Shown in pieces: positions 13,844-21,220 of a DNA stretch of 32,000 nucleotides (positions are counted from its first letter, which is position 1; each line of letters starts with the position of its first letter). Under the pieces are notes generated by a model. It searched no databases. It had not been told where the DNA came from and saw only the letters and a program-made list of their open reading frames with translations. Made by a program: the position numbers and the translations under genes. Origin of the DNA: Promethearchaeota archaeon (GTDB taxonomy: Archaea; Asgardarchaeota; Hermodarchaeia; Hermodarchaeales; Hermodarchaeaceae); NCBI GenBank assembly GCA_048938295.1, contig JBHLMI010000025.1, positions 11,083-43,082 on the forward strand, written 5' to 3'.

Positions 13844-14191
13844 ATGAGCCAGTTTACCTATAGGTTGCAGTTATCAAAGGTGTTGAAAGTGACCCAGGAC
13901 AGTTCCATTTACAAACGGACACGTTACGACATCTATGCCATGCTACTCCGCATCATCATAATTCATGGCTATTGCCCCCTAACCCGGGCAGCTCGCTCAA
14001 CGAATCTGCCCGTGGATCGGGCAAAGACCACCCTGGTGTTTCTTGAAGAGCGGGGCCTTGTCGAAGCCATTGAAGAAAAAAATCGGAGGTTATTTCGGGT
14101 CACAGTCCGGGGACGACAGTACCTGGAAATGTATAAGCGTATGATTGGCTTTGTCGGCATGCCCATGCCCGAACCCGTCACACCGTTTTAG
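13844..14191 (+). CDS. Archaeal winged-helix DNA-binding protein
   Basis: Pattern RTRYDIYAMLL...LTRAARSTNL...LVFLEERGLV...FRVTVRGRQYL. Confidence 0.75.
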   Translation: MSQFTYRLQLSKVLKVTQDSSIYKRTRYDIYAMLLRIIIIHGYCPLTRAARSTNLPVDRAKTTLVFLEERGLVEAIEEKNRRLFRVTVRGRQYLEMYKRMIGFVGMPMPEPVTPF

Positions 14192-14238: not shown

Positions 14239-15195
14239 ATGGGAATCAATTCAAGTGTATATGACACTGTAGTTGTTGGCGGTGGTCCTGCAGGAATCGC
14301 CGCCGCAATGCATTTGGGGTTTCATCAGCGGAGAGTCTTAATCATCGACCGAAAGACAACACCGATGCAATTTGCGAATACTCCAATCCATAATTATCCT
14401 GGTGTGAAACCCCTCGTTGCCCCCACAAAAATCCTTCAAAAGATGAGGAGAGAATTACGTGAGTATAACGTTGAAACCTTTTTTGGTAATGTGATCGGCA
14501 TCACGGGGCAGACGCCAAATTTTCTTATTGACGTCAAATCTGCCCAAGAGACGCTTACAACGGTCACCGCGAAAACCTTGGTCTTGGCAACGGGGATTGC
14601 TCGCAAACATCCTAAGGTCGACGGTGATTGGAAAAAGTGGCTTCCGTTTGCGGGAAAAAATCACACGAGCTATTACTGTCCAGATTGTGATAGTCCACAA
14701 GCTACCGGGAAAGACGTCATCATCGTCAATGCTGGGACAGCCAATAGCGCACTGCACGTGGCTCGGTGCATCAAACCCTTTGCAACGCGCATTCGAATTT
14801 TCATGACCGAAGATGCCTACGCCCCTTACACCAAGGACTCTGAAACAATTCTGAATAAGTCGGGTTTCGAATGGACCCATGGACTCATTAAAGAAATTAA
14901 CATACTAGAACCTGGAAAACGACAGCAGCTTATCACCGCTGATGATCGAACCCTTGAATGCAATATCTTCTTCGTTGCATGGGTTGCTGTTCCACGGAGT
15001 GAGCTTGCGAAACGAATGGGTGTTGATGTGGATACGCAAGGTAATATCATCACTGATCACAAGGGAACTACAAATATCAAAGGGGTCTGGGCTGCAGGAG
15101 ACATCCTACCTATCACCCAAACAGTTGCTACCGCAGTTGGGACAGGTGTATATGCTGGAATCATGATTGCCCACTACTTGTTATCATTTGATTGA
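14239..15195 (+). CDS. Thioredoxin-reductase-like flavoprotein with CxxC and atypical pyridine-nucleotide motifs
   Basis: FAD motifs VVGGGPAG and TNIKGVWAAGD; redox centre CPDC at 14677. The NADPH motifs are replaced by NAGTANSA and MTED. Confidence 0.85.
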   Translation: MGINSSVYDTVVVGGGPAGIAAAMHLGFHQRRVLIIDRKTTPMQFANTPIHNYPGVKPLVAPTKILQKMRRELREYNVETFFGNVIGITGQTPNFLIDVKSAQETLTTVTAKTLVLATGIARKHPKVDGDWKKWLPFAGKNHTSYYCPDCDSPQATGKDVIIVNAGTANSALHVARCIKPFATRIRIFMTEDAYAPYTKDSETILNKSGFEWTHGLIKEINILEPGKRQQLITADDRTLECNIFFVAWVAVPRSELAKRMGVDVDTQGNIITDHKGTTNIKGVWAAGDILPITQTVATAVGTGVYAGIMIAHYLLSFD

Positions 15196-15261: not shown

Positions 15262-15537
15262 TCACACAACGACTCTTTCCTCAGCTAGTTCTTTTAACAG
15301 TATTAATCCCCGGTTGATCTTATCTCTCAGTTCCGCAATATCTCCTTCTTCAGCCTTATGTTTATCAAAAAGTACCACTACCGAAAGCTGAAGTCTATTA
15401 AGGGAAAGAAAAATCCGATAACAAGTCTGATGTTCCTCTGGGGTATCAAACGAAAAGGTTACTGGCCAATCCCATTCTTTCGTGATTTGTAAAATGAATT
15501 GCTTCACCCATGAAGAAAGTTTTCTCCTAGATACCAT
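15262..15537 (-). CDS. Small hypothetical protein
   Basis: ATG start, 91 aa, plausible alpha/beta composition. A TATA-like TTTATATT lies on the - strand at ~15573-15580. Confidence 0.5.
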   Translation of the reverse strand: MVSRRKLSSWVKQFILQITKEWDWPVTFSFDTPEEHQTCYRIFLSLNRLQLSVVVLFDKHKAEEGDIAELRDKINRGLILLKELAEERVVV

Positions 15538-15679
15538 TAGTTACGCACAATCCACTATTTGTCGAGTATGAATATAAAAAATGAAGATAGTCGCATCATC
15601 TGACTCCAAACTCACCAATTACTCTCATAATTCGCCTATTTTAAGTTTAAACACTCGTTTTCAAACAAAGTCAGTTTAG

Positions 15680-15726
15680 TTACATTATGTGAATCCAAAA
15701 TGGAGAATTACTCACATATTGTGAGT
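15680..15726. promoter_or_regulatory. Putative operator pair (TCACA-N3-TGTGA)
   Basis: TTACA-TTA-TGTGA at 15680-15692 and the perfect inverted repeat ACTCACA-TAT-TGTGAGT at 15710-15726. The centres are 32 bp apart. Confidence 0.7.
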
Positions 15727-15871
15727 CTCAAAATACCGATTTTTGTATGGCTATATGATAGGACAGACCTTAAGTCCCAGATTACCGTTTTTTGGGTCGG
15801 ATAGTGATGGGACTCGTACTTGGAGAGGTGGAGAAAAAAAGGAGTTGATATTAATGAAAAATTGCTGTAGG

Positions 15872-16366
15872 TTAGCAACAATACCTGAATTGCTGAGGAA
15901 AGTTGTCTCCAATCACCAGGAATTCTCCAGAGACTATAATATTGATGATTGTACGAGCCATAACAACAATTTCGCCTTCAATGTAGCTTATGGCATAGAC
16001 GTTGCCGTATACCCATAGAGTTACATTACACGCACCCACTAGGTCAATCCACCCAGTGTCATACAGGCCAGGTTCAGAAAAGGGAAAAAACGCAATCTGC
16101 TGTTCCGAGGTTCCTATTTCAATTCCTGTTAATGCTGCGGGTACATCGAGGCAAACCAGATCTGAAATTTCAACAATCGCACGCATTTGTGAGTATGGCC
16201 AAGGAACATTCACCTCATAGGTCCATTCAATACCTGGAAGGCCATAAAGTTCAAACTGAGTTGGAGTCAAGATTACAATGGGCATCGAATATATTATAGC
16301 CGTGAAGCCACCCACAATCCCTATCGCTATTAGTAAGGTTATTCCTAGCTTGAAAGGTTTTCTCAC
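15872..16366 (-). CDS. Hypothetical membrane-anchored or secreted beta-rich protein
   Basis: GGAGGT lies 8 nt before GTG 16366. N-terminal basic plus hydrophobic segment MRKPFKLGITLLIAIGIVGGFTAII. Confidence 0.65.
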   Translation of the reverse strand: MRKPFKLGITLLIAIGIVGGFTAIIYSMPIVILTPTQFELYGLPGIEWTYEVNVPWPYSQMRAIVEISDLVCLDVPAALTGIEIGTSEQQIAFFPFSEPGLYDTGWIDLVGACNVTLWVYGNVYAISYIEGEIVVMARTIINIIVSGEFLVIGDNFPQQFRYCC

Positions 16367-16461
16367 CAAAAAGACCTCCAAGGATACTAAGAGAACTCTG
16401 CCTAAACCTTGTATTTAGGAATTTTCACTATATCGTCAATTATTCTTATTTAATGAATGTA

Positions 16462-16505
16462 GTCATATCAAGTGACCCCAAAATAGAGAATTACTCACAT
16501 TATGA
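16462..16505. promoter_or_regulatory. Putative operator pair (degenerate)
   Basis: GTCATA-TCA-AGTGAC at 16462-16476 and ACTCACA-TTA-TGA at 16493-16505, centres 32 bp apart. Adjacent to a - strand TATA-like TTAAATAA at 16446-16453. Confidence 0.6.
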
Positions 16506-16648
16506 AAAAAGGGGGCGCTCTTCTTCTGTGAATGAACTGCCTAAAACCATCTTGCGTTGTAACGCCACTTAGGGTGTTTTTGGATGCCGTCTATCTACTT
16601 ATCAGCTGAAAAATATTTATTGGTTTTACATGTCGCTAGAGAGAAGGC

Positions 16649-16687
16649 AATAAAAAGAAGAAGGGGAGGAAGAGTAGACTCTTCCTC
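16649..16687 (-). terminator. Hairpin plus T-tract terminator downstream of the bPH_2 gene
   Basis: Perfect 10-bp inverted repeat GAGGAAGAGT-AG-ACTCTTCCTC at 16666-16687. On the - strand it is followed by CCCTTCTTCTTTTTATT. Confidence 0.7.
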
Positions 16688-16707
16688 ATGTTCAGGCTTA
16701 GCCACGT

Positions 16708-17445
16708 TTAGCTTTTTTCGAGTTTTCGGGCAATTTCCGAGAGGATCTCACGCATTTCCCGAAGGGTTAGAAGAATCTCATCATCCAACGTGTCGGGGAG
16801 TTTTGGTACTTGTTCCTCTCGGCGCCTTAGAACTTCAGTACCGATCGTATAGGGTGCTCGGAACTTCCGTAACTCTTGAAGAATGAAGTCACGTAATTCC
16901 TCAAAAAATTCAAAACCCTCTAATTTTTCTTCAGGACCTGATTTTTGCCCAGAATATCCGGCAGTTTCTATATTGATATTACCAATACCGAATAGCCTGT
17001 CGAAGGGTCCTGCAGTGGTGCTAATGTTAGTGATAGTTCGGAAAGGCACGTGCTTTCGTGTTATGCTAATAATCCCTTTCCGGACATACACCTCTGGCAT
17101 AGTTTCACCTGACTCCGCAATCACCGAATATTCAATTCTTCCAACATAGATGGGCGTTAAAATCCAGGCTGGAATCAGCCAAATTAGGTTAAAGATCCAC
17201 ATTCCAATGTTCATCGGCATCCACCAGGTTATAAGCCAAAGGAATGCACTTGGATCATCAAGACCAATAATTGTGCCAATCCCCCCGACAAAAATTAAGA
17301 ACAGTACGTAGAAGAATAGAGCTAAAATAACCTGTTGAAGCCACATCTTATTCCGCAGAGCCTTTGATGGTTTAAACACCCGACCGCTGGTGATTTTTTC
17401 GCCTGGAGGCTTAATCACCCGTGTCTCTTCATATTCCTTTCCCAA
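16708..17445 (-). CDS. bPH_2 (YdbS-like) PH-domain membrane protein
   Basis: Two TMs, then YVRKGIISITRKHVPFRTITNIS..AGPFDRLFGIGNINIETAG. The start codon directly abuts the regulator's stop. Confidence 0.85.
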   Translation of the reverse strand: MGKEYEETRVIKPPGEKITSGRVFKPSKALRNKMWLQQVILALFFYVLFLIFVGGIGTIIGLDDPSAFLWLITWWMPMNIGMWIFNLIWLIPAWILTPIYVGRIEYSVIAESGETMPEVYVRKGIISITRKHVPFRTITNISTTAGPFDRLFGIGNINIETAGYSGQKSGPEEKLEGFEFFEELRDFILQELRKFRAPYTIGTEVLRRREEQVPKLPDTLDDEILLTLREMREILSEIARKLEKS

Positions 17446-17946
17446 TTAATCCACACTCCGTTGATACCGGGGTATCTCTTTTGCAGCAAGTTTATTGAAG
17501 AGTGCAATGGACTGCCTTGTCATAGGGAGCTCCTTCTCATCTGATCGCAATGTAATATTATATTCATCAATGATTGCATCAAGGGTTTGTCGACACTCTT
17601 GTTGTTTTGGACACTCTGGGCAAAGCTTACCCGCGTAAGATTCGTGTTTGTACCAAACGATAATGCCCATTTTGATTGTAAAAATGATGTATACTTGGGT
17701 ATTGGCCTGATAGTCAAAACCTATCAGAAGCCCCTTGTAATCTAACAAACTCTCAACATCCAAGCGATGACTTCGAGCATGCTCCTGCAGTACTTTTGCA
17801 ATCTTTTTTCTTGCACGGTTTAACACACGGGATACATACGAAACAGACCAACTCTCCTTTTTGCTAGCACTTGCAATATCGCTAGTTGATTGTCCTTGCT
17901 GAAACTGCTGCCAAACTAGCTCTTCATCAGGAGAGAGAAGTCCCAT
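17446..17946 (-). CDS. HTH transcriptional regulator (sigma70-r4/LuxR-like N-terminus) with a C-terminal CxxCPxxxxC domain
   Basis: LSPDEELVW...GQSTSDIA...SVSYVSRVLNRARKKI, and later LCPECPKQQEC. GAGGA precedes ATG 17946, so the start was moved from the ORF-track call. Confidence 0.8.
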   Translation of the reverse strand: MGLLSPDEELVWQQFQQGQSTSDIASASKKESWSVSYVSRVLNRARKKIAKVLQEHARSHRLDVESLLDYKGLLIGFDYQANTQVYIIFTIKMGIIVWYKHESYAGKLCPECPKQQECRQTLDAIIDEYNITLRSDEKELPMTRQSIALFNKLAAKEIPRYQRSVD

Positions 17947-18113
17947 TGTATATTCCTCGTTTTTCGTTTTTATGTAGCGAATTCCTGTTAATGCCTTCGT
18001 ACAAGATTTTGCCACATGTTTACTAAATATTAGTAAACATTTATAAATTTTTGTTTTGCGGAACACGCCAACTAAACTATTCAAACGAATGAAGGGTAAA
18101 CAAAGTTATCATC

Positions 18114-18147
18114 TTCACAAGTTGTTATTTGAGTCACATTTTGTGAC
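18114..18147. promoter_or_regulatory. Putative operator pair in the divergent regulator / trmO-like spacer
   Basis: TTCACA-AGT-TGTTA at 18114-18127 and the perfect GTCACA-TTT-TGTGAC at 18133-18147. The centres are 19 bp apart. Confidence 0.7.
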
Positions 18148-18193
18148 ACCTTAATGATAATCCTTAATTCACGCTATATAATATCTCATTGCC

Positions 18194-18667
18194 GTGATTC
18201 ATTTGAGCTGGCTTAAATCAATTCATCTCCAACCAATAGGATTCATAGAACGCCTCTCGTCAGATGAGAGAGATTTTAGTGCCATGTCTAAAGTTGTGCT
18301 AAAAAACTCTTTGACAGACGCCCTATTAGGGATTGAGGAATTTTCACATATTTTCATAATCTTTTGGCTACACGAAATGAAAATCAGAGAAGATGTTTCC
18401 TGGATTCATCCGAGCTGCTCAGATAATCAACATTTAGTAGGCTTTTTAGCGACTAGAGCTCCCCTTCGTCCAAATCCCATAGGTCTGACTCTTGTTGAGC
18501 TTGTTAACCATGAAAACAATGTTCTTTGGGTGAAAGGATTGGACGCAGTTGATGGAACTCCTGTTATTGATATTAAGCCATACCCTGATTGGCATACGGG
18601 AGAATGTCAGGTGATTGTTGATTACAAAATTCCTGATTGGTTGAAACAATTACTTGACTCAAGTTAG
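18194..18667 (+). CDS. TrmO/TsaA-like SAM-binding protein (single domain)
   Basis: Motifs LQPIG, HIFIIFWLH, ATRAPLRPNPIGLT.V.L, GLDAVDGTPVIDIKPY. Start uncertain; activity on tRNA not demonstrated. Confidence 0.85.
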   Translation: MIHLSWLKSIHLQPIGFIERLSSDERDFSAMSKVVLKNSLTDALLGIEEFSHIFIIFWLHEMKIREDVSWIHPSCSDNQHLVGFLATRAPLRPNPIGLTLVELVNHENNVLWVKGLDAVDGTPVIDIKPYPDWHTGECQVIVDYKIPDWLKQLLDSS

Positions 18668-18756
18668 GGAATAATCTAGTCAATAGTCTTCGATTTAATT
18701 GACGAGTGTATTGTCGTAAAAGCTGAAGGTTATCGTTCTATTCTATTTTCACTATT

Positions 18757-18803
18757 TTACAAAATGTGAGTAAAGTAACATTATGTGACCCCAAAATGTG
18801 AGT
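18757..18803. promoter_or_regulatory. Triple operator array upstream of the bactofilin-like gene
   Basis: TTACA-AAA-TGTGAGT, GTAACA-TTA-TGTGAC and CCCA-AAA-TGTGAGT, with centres at 18763/18782/18795. A TATA-like TTTTAAAG follows at ~18809-18816. Confidence 0.72.
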
Positions 18804-18862
18804 CCGCCTTTTAAAGTAGGAATCCTTTGCTTCTATCAGCAGAATACTTGGAGGCATGCAAA

Positions 18863-20053
18863 ATGGATGAAAAACTCCGATTCAAAAACGAACACGACCT
18901 CAAATTAGGACACGTCAAAGGTGATCTAGAACTCAACAACTGCCGACATGTCCATCCTGAAAAGGGTGATATTATCGTCGTTGATGGTCGTGTCTCTGTG
19001 CGTGGCGACGTAATATTCGAGGGCTCCTTACAAGCCGAATATTTAGAAATTCACGGCGATAACAGCTCAGAAATTCATGGTGACCTCCTTGTAGCCCGGG
19101 CAGTGAATGTACGACGAGGCCAATTAGCAATTACAGGATCCACAACAGCAAATCGCTTCGAAATAAACGCCGCTTTAAGCGTCGGCAAAGACTTACAAGC
19201 CACCAAAGTTTCGATTGGCGGTGCCCTCAAAGTCGGAGGAAACGCCACCGTTGAAGAGATCAAAGTTGGAGGGGCAGTGAAAATTGAAGGGAAAATCGAT
19301 TCGAAGTCGTTGGAAGTTGGTGGCGCAGCGAAATGTAACACTGGGATAATCGGCAAGGTTGATGTTGGTGGGTCATTCAAAGCCGATGGTGCTGTTGAAA
19401 TTGGTTCGATTGATGTTGGAGGGGCTGTCGTCGTTGGACCTGGCTCTAAGGTAATTAGAATCGATGTTGGAGGCAGTTTCAAGAGTGATGGTGAAGTGAC
19501 GTTTGAAGATCTGGATGTAGGTGGGGCTGCTAAATTTGGTGGGGATGCTATCGGTAAATCCATTGATGTTGGAGGCGCTGTCTCTGGCGAAGGCTCCATC
19601 ACCCTAGCTGAAAAGCTGGATGTTGGGGGTTCGGTGGTCGTTACAAAGAACCTTATCGTTGCTAAAGAAATTGAGGTTGGTGGGTCTTTGAGGGCGGGCG
19701 ACAAGATTGAATCTCCGCGAATCGATATCGGTGGTTTGATTCAGGGAACTCACATCATTGCTGAGCAGTTCCGAATTGGTCGACGGGGCGAAGTCTCTGG
19801 CTTTGTTGAAGCAACTGATATCACAGTCGAAGAAAATGCTCGGGGCGCTTCCTTCTATGGTGATTCCATCCGTGTGGAAGAGCAGGCTCGAGTAAAGAAC
19901 CTTTATGGACGTCAAATCTACATTGAACGTGATGTCAGGGTTGAAGGTGAAGTCCTGTATACCGAGGGATTAGAAACTGAACCTGGAGTCCACTTCAGCA
20001 AGGAACCGGAGCAAGTCAAGAAACTTCCTCGACCCGAAGACCTACTCAAATAG
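18863..20053 (+). CDS. Polymer-forming cytoskeletal (bactofilin-like) beta-helix repeat protein
   Basis: About 11 (I/L/V)-(D/E/K)-V-G-G repeats at 16-18 aa spacing between 19208 and 19735, with similar beta-strand repeats on either side. GGAGG lies 8 nt before ATG 18863. Confidence 0.75.
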   Translation: MDEKLRFKNEHDLKLGHVKGDLELNNCRHVHPEKGDIIVVDGRVSVRGDVIFEGSLQAEYLEIHGDNSSEIHGDLLVARAVNVRRGQLAITGSTTANRFEINAALSVGKDLQATKVSIGGALKVGGNATVEEIKVGGAVKIEGKIDSKSLEVGGAAKCNTGIIGKVDVGGSFKADGAVEIGSIDVGGAVVVGPGSKVIRIDVGGSFKSDGEVTFEDLDVGGAAKFGGDAIGKSIDVGGAVSGEGSITLAEKLDVGGSVVVTKNLIVAKEIEVGGSLRAGDKIESPRIDIGGLIQGTHIIAEQFRIGRRGEVSGFVEATDITVEENARGASFYGDSIRVEEQARVKNLYGRQIYIERDVRVEGEVLYTEGLETEPGVHFSKEPEQVKKLPRPEDLLK

Positions 20054-20182: not shown

Positions 20183-21220
20183 TTGGTGCTCCGAAACATG
20201 GCTAATGGGAATCCATCACCCAGTGGAGGAATTCAACTTAGTGGTGAATTCAAAATTTTGCCACTTGCAGCTGAAAGCCTTGGTGTCCGTAGCCTTGCCA
20301 CGCAGGTGCAAACAGCAGATGCATCCATTCTCATCGACCCCAATGTTGCCTTGGGTTTCCGAGATAATTTTCATCCACATCCCACCGAATACATCCTCCT
20401 CAAATCATTACGCACACAAATCCTTCAAGTTGCACAGTCTGTAGACCTGATTGTGGTATCCCACTTCCATCATGATCACTTCATGCCTTTCTTCCGGAAT
20501 TATGCCTACTTCTGGTCAAACTCCGATGACGCCGAAACGTTGTATGGTCACAAGAAGGTCTGGTGTAAGGATATCCGGTCCCGGATTAACTACTCACAAC
20601 AAGGACGCGGTTACAATTTCCTGCGGCGCGCTCGAAAAGTAGCTAAAGAGGTCGTATACGCCGATGGCAAGGCGATGAAACTTGGCAACACGCTCATTCG
20701 GTTCTCGCCTGCTGTTCCTCACGGTGAAACCGGAACACGACTTGGATGGGTAATCATGACATCCATTCGATGTGGCGGGTTTTCAATGGTGCATGCCTCT
20801 GATGTTCAGGGTCCAATGGTAAATGAGACGGCTGACTGGATTTTACATCAAAAACCCGATGTTGTGGTTCTGGGTGGACCACCCACCTATCTTGCTCCGG
20901 ACCGAGTATCCCAAGATGCTATTGCAGCAGCTGCAGCAAATCTTAGTCGACTTGGCGAACAAATTCCAATAGTAATTGTGGACCATCACCTCTTGCGGGA
21001 TAAGGAATGGGACAAGTGGTTAGGGCCCATCCAAGAGCATGCCAGCAACCAAGGGAATCAGGTGATGACCGTTGCTGAAGTCTTGGGGCAACCCTATAAT
21101 CAACTCGAAGTACAACGGGAATCACTCTACGAAAGTCATCCTCCCACTGACACCTATGAGGTGTGGATCAAAGCCATCAAGGGCTCTCGAACCCAGATTC
21201 GCCCACCACTGAATCTCTAG
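20183..21220 (+). CDS. UPF0282-type metallo-beta-lactamase-fold hydrolase
   Basis: Motifs AAESLGVRSLAT, LIDP..ALG, SHFHHDH, PHG, SDVQGP, DHHLLRD. The start may be ATG 20198. Confidence 0.85.
   Translation: MVLRNMANGNPSPSGGIQLSGEFKILPLAAESLGVRSLATQVQTADASILIDPNVALGFRDNFHPHPTEYILLKSLRTQILQVAQSVDLIVVSHFHHDHFMPFFRNYAYFWSNSDDAETLYGHKKVWCKDIRSRINYSQQGRGYNFLRRARKVAKEVVYADGKAMKLGNTLIRFSPAVPHGETGTRLGWVIMTSIRCGGFSMVHASDVQGPMVNETADWILHQKPDVVVLGGPPTYLAPDRVSQDAIAAAAANLSRLGEQIPIVIVDHHLLRDKEWDKWLGPIQEHASNQGNQVMTVAEVLGQPYNQLEVQRESLYESHPPTDTYEVWIKAIKGSRTQIRPPLNL

Follow-up and report, generated by a model that had tools for sequence, protein, structure and literature searches.

Putative copies of a Phr/HSR1-type operator at the cassette junctions before a bactofilin-like gene in Hermodarchaeota

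In the window, that is the whole stretch of 32,000 nucleotides analysed here, an array of accessory genes lies between a HTH_45 winged-helix gene and a bactofilin-like gene (Table 1). The blocks of this array are the 91-aa gene, the 169-aa gene, the bPH_2 gene together with a HTH gene, and the TrmO_N gene. The 169-aa orphan has distant protein matches only in two relatives, G001 (31%) and G009 (26%). A TATA-like box on the minus strand at ~16445-16453 is plausible. The TrmO_N block (18135-18798) is found in altered order in G004, G012 and the metagenome run X5.

Table 1. Genes and palindromic sites of the array region (positions in the window)
Feature	Position	Strand	Remarks
HTH_45 winged-helix gene, conserved left frame of array	13844..14191	+	Pfam, synteny
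TrxB-like flavoprotein gene	14239..15195	+	absent here in some relatives; possibly first cassette
91-aa orphan gene (cassette)	15262..15537	-	other neighbours in G004, G012, G013
A0, decayed operator copy AGTCGCATCATCTGACT	15589..15605	.	14.3 bits; ~10 nt from TATA-like box of 91-aa gene (minus strand)
S2 copy (A) AGTTACATTATGTGAAT	15678..15694	.	1 mismatch; 20.9 bits; independent matrix 16.5 bits, genome rank 8
S3 copy (A), perfect 17-bp palindrome ACTCACATATTGTGAGT	15710..15726	.	exact; 27.0 bits, genome rank 1 (hsp20/htrA-only matrix)
169-aa orphan gene (cassette)	15872..16381	-	0 DNA matches in 30 relatives
S2 copy (B), partly decayed, left edge of bPH_2/HTH cassette	16461..16477	.	15.6 bits
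S3 copy (B), left half-site alone retained	16493..16509	.	13.4 bits
bPH_2 membrane protein gene	16708..17445	-	Pfam bPH_2 6.6e-12; directly 3' of HTH gene, zero gap
HTH protein, 166 aa, Tfx/sigma-70-region-4-like, cassette cargo	17446..17946	-	
Perfect palindrome GTTTACTAA-ATA-TTAGTAAAC	18018..18038	.	directly after HTH-gene TATA box 18040-18048 (-)
S1-like weak site (C)	18113..18129	.	1 mismatch
S2 copy (C) AGTCACATTTTGTGACA, joint of bPH_2/HTH and TrmO_N cassettes	18132..18148	.	20.1 bits, genome rank 4
TrmO_N-domain gene (cassette)	18285..18667	+	Pfam 6.4e-30
S1 (D)	18755..18771	.	kept in genus g1
S2 (D), putative bactofilin-promoter operator and last-cassette junction	18774..18790	.	19.6 bits, genome rank 5
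Half-site TGTGAGTCC abutting GCC and TATA box	18797..18805	.	nearly invariant, 14 genomes (ATGAGTCC in one)
TATA box TTTTAAAG of bactofilin-like gene	18809..18816	+	~55 nt before ATG
Bactofilin-like gene, 396 aa, anchor of array	18863..20053	+	Pfam Bactofilin 1.2e-10; syntenic in all relatives
Metallo-beta-lactamase-fold gene	20183..21220	+	always 3' of bactofilin-like gene

Scanning the window with TCACANNNTGTGA recovered all nine TCACA-N3-TGTGA sites listed by the first-pass annotation, at the centres it had given (15686, 15718, 16469, 16501, 18121, 18140, 18763, 18782 and 18795, with 1, 0, 2, 2, 1, 0, 1, 1 and 2 mismatches in this order); a tenth copy, at 15589-15605, is decayed. The two perfect dyads that it had named can be read in the sequence, ACTCACA-TAT-TGTGAGT at 15710-15726 and GTCACA-TTT-TGTGAC at 18133-18147. 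The recurring spacings were also confirmed, 32 nt three times (15686-15718, 16469-16501 and 18763-18795), 19 nt twice and 13 nt once, and they are fixed because the sites are pieces of one polar unit of ~66 nt with the order S1-S2-linker-S3. Six of the seven sites with at most one mismatch in the window are within 15680-18788, the seventh (6837) being inside an ORF; sites with two mismatches number 29 against 17.3 expected, a class that alone is barely above chance. The whole genome (2.52 Mb) holds six exact sites, two of which are in the 15680-18803 stretch. In ORF-free DNA (261 kb, 41.9% GC), exact sites number five where 30 shuffles predict 0.23, and one-mismatch sites number 20 where they predict 8.0; this 3.1-kb stretch carries 6 of the 25. 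The motif is far over chance in the window, in the genome and in ORF-free DNA. Genuine, non-random, promoter-adjacent sites of what appears to be a protein-binding type are supported. The consensus of 17 bp is palindromic and can be written as A(G/C)TCACA-N3-TGTGA(C/G)T or as CT(C/A)AC-N5-GT(G/T)AG, and it is a predicted operator of a single Hermodarchaeota family (Asgard archaea).

The motif had been taken as the mark of a local regulon, but contigs C32 and C57 carry the same operator at loci unlinked to the window. A matrix trained on the sites before hsp20-like and htrA genes of the host genome and its relatives, with zero window sites, gave eight genome matches of at least 16.5 bits against 1.75 expected; the window sites took ranks 1, 4, 5 and 8 genome-wide, and the top six matches were all intergenic. 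The motif also stands at hsp20, htrA and GNAT loci that are unlinked, and genomes with the HTH gene elsewhere have it too. The earlier suggestion of a stress-type regulon fits this wider set, to which an HtrA protease and an Hsp20-like protein also belong. In the intergenic region of the divergent Phr-like/hsp20-like pair, the site on the hsp20 side, placed between TATA box and start codon, is found in 14 g1 and 3 g2 genomes (g1 and g2 being two genera), all of those with this region assembled; it is strong in 16 of these 17 and reaches 14.3 bits in G011. A weaker site on the regulator side is present in nearly all of the 17, and the Hsp20-like proteins of g1 and g2 share merely 35-42% identity. 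The Hsp20-like assignment is weak, the best match being 4RZK, a solved alpha-crystallin domain, with an E value of 8e-4, and the Pfam search gave no match. At htrA, 8-10 nt separate the site from the ATG in all six g1 genomes in which its position is readable, and it is absent from htrA loci of other families (3/3).

The TATA-like box at 18809-18816, noticed in the first reading, is real, as TTTTAAA is invariant in 14 genomes. The bactofilin promoter is ordered as S2 palindrome, half-site 13 nt on, GCC and TATA box. S2, half-site and TATA box are kept in 12 g1 and 2 g2 genomes with diverging flanks, and the S2/half-site/GCC/TATA module is also found at other promoters in both genera. The putative operator of the window is part of this conserved promoter of the bactofilin-like gene.

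The window palindrome is most likely bound by a Phr/HSR1-type heat-shock repressor encoded on another contig, as judged from sequence comparison. This candidate binder is a winged-helix protein of 178 aa (G000:C32, L002:3357-3893), encoded divergently from the Hsp20-like gene and containing Pfam HTH_20 and HTH_5. Its best match among solved structures is 2P4W, an ArsR-family regulator (E 8e-14, residues 6-89) which we take to be P. furiosus Phr, and the ArsR-type winged helix is recognised through this match. The search for Phr-like relatives returned 16 loci, all of the same family, and no nearby site of this type was found for the sole paralog in the genome. Linkage of the regulator to a small heat-shock gene (itself a weak call), with copies at the regulator's own promoter, was found in nearly all 17 genomes, and the operator is of the CTAAC-N5-GTTAG type, some copies being exactly CTAAC...GTTAG. 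The segment between the TATA box and the start codon is the classic place to block RNA polymerase recruitment. Since the operator is positioned there, downstream of TATA, at the hsp20-like, phr-like and htrA promoters, the regulator probably represses its own gene and its targets; it would block RNA polymerase recruitment until heat or protein-folding stress frees the DNA. At the bactofilin promoter the sites are upstream of the TATA box, unlike those of Phr/HSR1 targets, and repression there would be an extrapolation by analogy; activation or a bidirectional promoter is possible instead. The geometry of TFB/TBP-recruiting activators that had been read into the arrays was not supported.

HSR1 of Archaeoglobus fulgidus (Rohlin et al. 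2005, via PMC2396416 and PMC9133787) is autoregulated and its operator is CTAAC-N5-GTTAG, downstream of BRE/TATA. According to PMC2396416, PMC9133787 and PMC10746257, Phr stops polymerase recruitment at hsp20; PMC9133787, a secondary source, gives its site as a 29-bp element, TTTA / TGGTAA / AAAA. The operator described here has the same half-site spacing as that of HSR1 with four of five bases identical per half-site (CTCAC-N5-GTGAG here), the palindrome at the regulator's own promoter and the sHsp gene is, by position, likewise downstream of BRE/TATA, and the regulator gene is linked to hsp20, from which arrangement autoregulation would be implied. Unlike in HSR1, the putative regulon adds htrA, the bactofilin-like gene and a GNAT locus, with sites upstream of TATA at two of these added promoters, and the operator copies also mark cassette junctions. 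Phr (PF1790 of P. furiosus, 2P4W), a negative regulator of hsp20 and itself that is bound at the transcription start, is the closest solved homolog of the candidate over the winged helix, but its site is longer. Phr comes from a hyperthermophile, whereas the present host is an archaeon of sediments, and general proteotoxic or envelope stress may therefore act as the signal.

Clustering of the sites in the window is explained by the bactofilin promoter-operator unit, which forms the junction of a shuffled cassette array, and the same sites and spacings recur in four intergenic regions because each array junction carries an S1-S2(-S3) copy; the clustering thus marks cassette junctions rather than a local module that co-evolved. 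This unit is an insertion or exchange point for accessory-gene blocks in Ca. Hermodarchaeum. The array is genus-specific and was seen in sister genomes and metagenome contigs, gene order varies among genus members, and block homologies stop inside S2. Among 12 genomes, a given left flank is found next to different right flanks and vice versa; in metagenome contigs of another study, 18784 is joined to 16472 (at S2 copy B, where block homology in G004 begins at 16454) and the partner switches after 18147 and 18790. At S2 copy C the block homologies overlap over 18135-18150, and the contig that switches after 18147 turns there to the bactofilin promoter. At the S2 crossover the right arm is always TGTGACC, the left arm changes together with the left flank, and the metagenome joint is ambiguous over 11 nt. 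In some genomes and contigs the array is empty, and a single unit stands between HTH_45 and the bactofilin gene. On C32, the array at htrA contains seven copies of a repeat; its core, TACTCACAAA, is the left half of the operator palindrome kept before the bactofilin gene, hsp20 and htrA. Decay is seen in copies A0 and B, and junction copies may therefore be scars without regulatory use. A reading as MITE or IS ends was rejected, as copies genome-wide are too few and the sole link is one TnpB gene beside a unit on C57. The cassettes of these arrays include LRR, Kelch, methyltransferase, nitroreductase and other genes; such heterogeneous cargo does not look like a coherent stress regulon.

We consider it probable that the locus holds copies of a Phr/HSR1-type operator which double as cassette joints before the bactofilin gene. 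The proposal is a specific and testable Asgard regulon, in which a Phr/HSR1-type stress repressor would act through a defined operator of 17 bp on a small set of targets; a literature search, which was not exhaustive, found no description of a transcription-factor regulon in Asgard archaea. The targets, among them a bactofilin-like filament gene, a protease and a chaperone-like protein, would link stress control to a cytoskeletal element. At several loci the same operator units also form the joints of accessory-gene arrays that are reshuffled; the link of cassette repeats to a heat-shock operator is new here and, if more than coincidence, would offer a way to collect and wire new genes without integron machinery. 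A stronger form of this idea, that an integrase-less gene-capture system uses the operator unit for attachment or crossover, is put forward only tentatively, and we regard it as doubtful. Accessory genes would be inserted or exchanged at the operator palindromes of stress promoters (bactofilin, GNAT/R4, htrA), within and between loci, and captured genes would end up under or beside a stress-controlled promoter. Either an unknown enzyme or short-homology recombination seeded by the repeated operators could mediate the exchange.

The locus resembles chromosomal integrons, archaeal ones included (Ghaly et al. 2022, PMC9668308), in its arrays of accessory cassettes, the same-direction repeats, a fixed promoter-bearing site, and a cassette order and content that vary among close relatives. 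Unlike integrons, it has neither IntI or another recombinase at the array nor an attC-type site, its genes are on both strands, with TATA-like boxes of their own, and its repeat is a ~66-nt unit with a transcription-factor-type operator of 7-bp arms around 3 bp. Xer/dif modules (pdif-like; 28 bp, 11-bp arms, 6-bp spacer) alternate in orientation, whereas all copies on one contig here point the same way, and arms and centre also differ. Pure recombination sites of att/attC-like kind, used by an unknown site-specific recombinase and devoid of a transcriptional role, with the hsp20, htrA and bactofilin copies as landing sites, are an unlikely alternative. Such sites would agree with the reassortment joints on S2 in sister genomes and metagenome contigs, the half-palindrome cores of the C32 htrA array, the polar and co-oriented units within a contig and the frequent breaks of relatives' contigs at this place. 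The Phr-like/hsp20 sites, however, are kept in 17 genomes of two genera and insertions are never seen there, positions are fixed between TATA box and start codon, and the motif matches a published repressor operator. The sister genus keeps the bactofilin site, with no array seen in the two bactofilin loci examined, and 7-bp arms around 3 bp misfit tyrosine-recombinase core sites. A recombinase gene is absent in or near every array examined: the genome has only two PF00589 matches (C32:33535 and C33:7539), neither on the array contig, and no serine recombinase, and none was found among the cassette cargo and array genes of the relatives scanned.

That the palindromes are operators of another regulator, either HTH_45 (13844-14191) or some further factor, with the Phr-like protein merely a target, seems quite improbable. 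In both genera, each genome has HTH_45 upstream of the unit and of the bactofilin gene, as do metagenome contigs. However, a comparable site before HTH_45 itself was not found, the motif occurs at loci unlinked to it and differs by one base per half-site from the HSR1 operator, and the Phr-like gene's own promoter has two conserved sites.

The least probable model, to which we give hardly any weight, is the self-contained module of the first-pass annotation, with the HTH protein 17446-17946 binding cooperatively and controlling itself, bPH_2, two orphans and the bactofilin-like gene: the strong site 18132-18148 does lie between the HTH and TrmO_N genes, and cassette-type orthologs have a site ~185 nt (G004, G013, G008) or ~310 nt (G011) upstream, but 18132-18148 is a cassette boundary ~90 nt beyond the HTH gene's TATA box, the nearest site in G014 is ~1.2 kb off, eight orthologs in three genera (seven of 13 and one more distant) have no TCACA-N3-TGTGA within ~1.5 kb, and the motif stands at the unlinked loci given above. 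This protein is cassette cargo with a putative separate operator. Its AlphaFold2 model (14 orthologs) has a mean pLDDT of 66 and is confident solely in the N-terminal three-helix part; Foldseek against the PDB gave no match at E 0.001 or better, and the weak rows (retroviral integrase cores, IS transposase) carry no evidential value. The protein atlas gave leads only, to Sigma70_r4 and Tfx-like clusters. In each of the 13 orthologous promoters that were aligned (two genera), an invariant TATA box directly precedes another palindrome, GTTTACTAA-N3-TTAGTAAAC, of which the host genome has no second copy. The copy at 18018-18038 is probably the HTH gene's own operator, and this gene is re-annotated as a putative Tfx-like autoregulator paired with the bPH_2 membrane protein.

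Each of the nine TCACA-N3-TGTGA sites listed in the first-pass annotation is present at its claimed centre, with 0-2 mismatches to TCACANNNTGTGA, and the two perfect dyads and the centre spacings (three of 32 nt, two of 19 nt and one of 13 nt) were confirmed. The sites are not independent: they belong to one polar unit of ~66 nt, in which S1 is followed after 2 nt by S2, a 15-nt linker starting with CCCCAAAAT, and S3, and this accounts for the fixed spacings. Complete or partial copies of the unit occupy all four intergenic regions of the window cluster, and a fifth, decayed copy was also found. We favour, with some reservation, the reading that the window sites are copies of a Phr/HSR1-type operator, which would stand at the bactofilin promoter and, as further copies, at the seams of a cassette array that shuffles. 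The sites would then cluster in the window because the array seams there carry copies of the unit.

The window holds seven sites with no more than one mismatch, and all but one of them fall in one 3.1-kb stretch. Exact sites number only six in the whole genome G000 (2.52 Mb, 66 contigs, 45.8% GC), in which the window is C26:11083-43082, and the window accounts for two of them. Its ORF-free DNA (261 kb, 41.9% GC) has 5 exact sites where 0.23 are expected and 20 sites with one mismatch where 8.0 are expected; 6 of these 25 sites lie in the 3.1-kb stretch. A motif frequency no higher than that of AT-rich background is therefore rejected.

With a palindromic 17-mer matrix derived from six sites of the window, G000 has seven matches of at least 20.3 bits, the next best dropping to 16.7 bits; three of these matches are not in the window but on contigs C32 and C57 (see table). 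The winged-helix and Hsp20-like genes on C32 form a divergent pair that is syntenic in all 14 genomes of Ca. Hermodarchaeum (g1) and in three of the sister genus (g2). The hsp20-side site is present in all 17 genomes, strong in 16 and of 14.3 bits in G011, while the Hsp20-like protein shares only 35-42% identity with its g2 counterparts; the regulator-side site is weaker and occurs in nearly all of the 17. Towards either gene, the site falls downstream of a conserved TATA-like box and ahead of the start codon. At htrA, the distance from the site to the ATG is 8-10 nt in six g1 genomes, those in which it could be read, and no site was found at three htrA loci of other families. A second matrix was made from hsp20 and htrA sites only, with no window site. 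It gave 8 matches of at least 16.5 bits in G000, where 20 Markov shuffles lead one to expect 1.75, and the window sites at 15710, 18132, 18774 and 15678 ranked 1, 4, 5 and 8, respectively; the window palindromes are therefore the same element as that at the hsp20-like and htrA stress genes. The Hsp20-like protein (L002:4027-4698) has no Pfam match, only residues 144-214 being alpha-crystallin-like, with a long N-terminal part of ~130 aa outside this region, and its gene probably starts at the second ATG, L002:4054. A Lactamase_B_3-type metallo-beta-lactamase-fold gene directly adjoins both htrA (L001:3101-3919) and the bactofilin-like gene (20183-21220), and such enzymes may regularly belong to one regulon with these two genes.

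Coordinates of the operator matches, promoters and related features (bare numbers refer to the window)
Feature	Position	Context
Perfect dyad	15710-15726	
Perfect dyad	18133-18147	
Decayed unit copy	15589-15605	
Operator match	C32:14713	8 nt 5' of the ATG of an HtrA-type protease gene (Trypsin_2 + PDZ)
Operator match	C32:105803	between the 178-aa winged-helix gene and a 223-aa gene (C-terminus alpha-crystallin-like)
Operator match	C57:5312	adjoins a TnpB gene
TrmO_N block	18135-18798	
bPH_2/HTH block	16454-18150	
Perfect 21-bp palindrome, GTTTACTAA-ATA-TTAGTAAAC	18018-18038	directly after the HTH-gene TATA box; only copy in G000
Hairpin, GGAAGAGT-AGA-CTCTTCC	16660-16680	just 3' of the bPH_2 stop codon, minus strand
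R4 promoter	L003:3700-3975 (G000:C57); relatives L028, L029, L033, L048-L052	S2, two further GTGAG half-sites 13 nt apart, TTATATAA

The closest solved relative of the 178-aa winged-helix protein is 2P4W, an ArsR-family regulator (E 8e-14), which we take to be Phr of P. furiosus. Phr represses hsp20 and its own gene by covering their start sites, so that polymerase is not recruited (PMC9133787, PMC10746257). HSR1 of A. fulgidus, a distant Phr relative, recognises CTAAC-N5-GTTAG, which lies downstream of BRE/TATA in the promoters of HSR1 itself and of an hsp20 gene (PMC2396416). Written as CT(C/A)AC-N5-GT(G/T)AG, the window motif has the same spacing and differs in one base per half-site, and several copies have the CTAAC or GTTAG form. 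The sole G000 paralog of the Phr-like regulator has no such site nearby. Together, the Phr homology, the HSR1-like motif and the paralog lacking a nearby site point to the 178-aa Phr/HSR1-type regulator as the putative binder of the candidate operator. The regulon proposed earlier is partly supported: the motif is a genuine stress-type regulon motif, but the regulator was wrongly chosen and the motif is not local.

The protein proposed earlier as the TCACA binder, the HTH protein encoded at 17446-17946, was not borne out in this role, since it has a distinct palindrome of its own and half of its orthologs lack a nearby TCACA site. This 166-aa protein has a confident N-terminal three-helix domain and resembles Sigma70_r4 and Tfx-like archaeal regulators by atlas features, which serve as a lead only. 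Its gene abuts the bPH_2 gene on the upstream side, leaving no gap, and the pair occurs once per genome. An invariant TTTATAAAT box, with GTTTACTAA-N3-TTAGTAAAC immediately behind it, is present in each of the 13 aligned orthologous promoters, which come from two genera, and the palindrome of the window copy is probably the operator by which the pair of Tfx-like regulator and bPH_2 is autoregulated. Cassette-type HTH copies (82-98% identical to the window protein) sit in S2-bounded arrays. In four of five relatives an S2 site is located ~185 to 310 nt ahead of the gene, and in the fifth, G014, the nearest one is ~1.2 kb away. Copies in another context are 71-78% identical, and no TCACA site was found within ~1.5 kb of these, of the g2 copies or of one third-genus copy. 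As the palindrome is conserved and TCACA sites are absent near the HTH copies outside arrays, S2 near the window HTH gene is the cassette boundary and not the operator of this gene. The hairpin behind bPH_2 looks like a terminator.

A DNA search in 30 relatives showed a constant frame, with HTH_45, with or without TrxB-like, on the left and the bactofilin-like and metallo-beta-lactamase-fold genes on the right, and variable gene content between HTH_45 and the bactofilin-like gene. Only a single unit lies there in G006, both examined g2 loci and one metagenome contig. In G004, TrmO_N precedes bPH_2/HTH, reversing the window order, and 3.6 kb of different genes follow. The bPH_2/HTH block and the bactofilin gene are on separate contigs in G013, G014, G011 and G008; the block has a second anchor promoter, R4, immediately next to it in G013 and G008, and in G014 R4 is ~2.4 kb away on the block's own contig. 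The homology of the TrmO_N and bPH_2/HTH blocks stops inside S2, and among 37 S2 copies from 12 genomes one left flank pairs with up to four right flanks, and conversely. In X5, a metagenome contig run from a different study, 18784 is fused directly to 16472, with 11 bases ambiguous, and 18147 runs on into the bactofilin promoter; in run X3, 18790 runs on into R4. Of the 14 g1 genomes, 13 contain the S1-S2 25-mer, with 1-4 copies each and a single direction per contig; it was not found in g2. The cargo in relatives is heterogeneous (LRR, Kelch/fn3, methyltransferase, nitroreductase, DUF998, hydrolase and PNPOx proteins), with no recombinase found among it; G000 has only two tyrosine recombinase genes, both off the window's contig, and no serine recombinase was found in this genome. 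A core, TACTCACAAA, is present in seven copies in a cassette array upstream of htrA on C32, the last being the left half of the htrA operator; sister genomes keep this operator with a different left flank. One cassette type in relatives (L017:4946-4990, L020:3506-3550, L025, L032) opens, immediately behind S2, with a pair of perfect hairpins, CATGGAGAG-TTA-CTCTCCATG and AGCTAG-TCGG-CTAGCT, and was found with four different left neighbours. Nine of 20 stretches from sister genomes have a contig end in or beside the array; the repeated units evidently interrupt assembly, and array sizes in MAGs are therefore underestimates.

Across 12 g1 and two g2 genomes the flanks of the bactofilin promoter diverge, but S2, a TGTGAGTCC half-site 13 nt beyond it, GCC and TTTTAAA are all kept. 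The conservation of this module in g2, where the array was not seen at the loci examined, argues for a transcriptional role. A module of S2, spacer, GTGAGTCCGCC and TATA also heads other promoters in both genera. Read towards the cassettes, the bactofilin module has the hsp20-promoter layout (TATA, half-site, 7 nt, palindrome), and it may thus face the cassettes or act bidirectionally. At R4, a conserved stretch of ~200 nt with a possible 38-aa ORF (MLSSV...KY.YWFACR) lies on the 3' side, followed by a zinc-ribbon GNAT gene, and in G000 a TnpB gene lies on the opposite side of S2.
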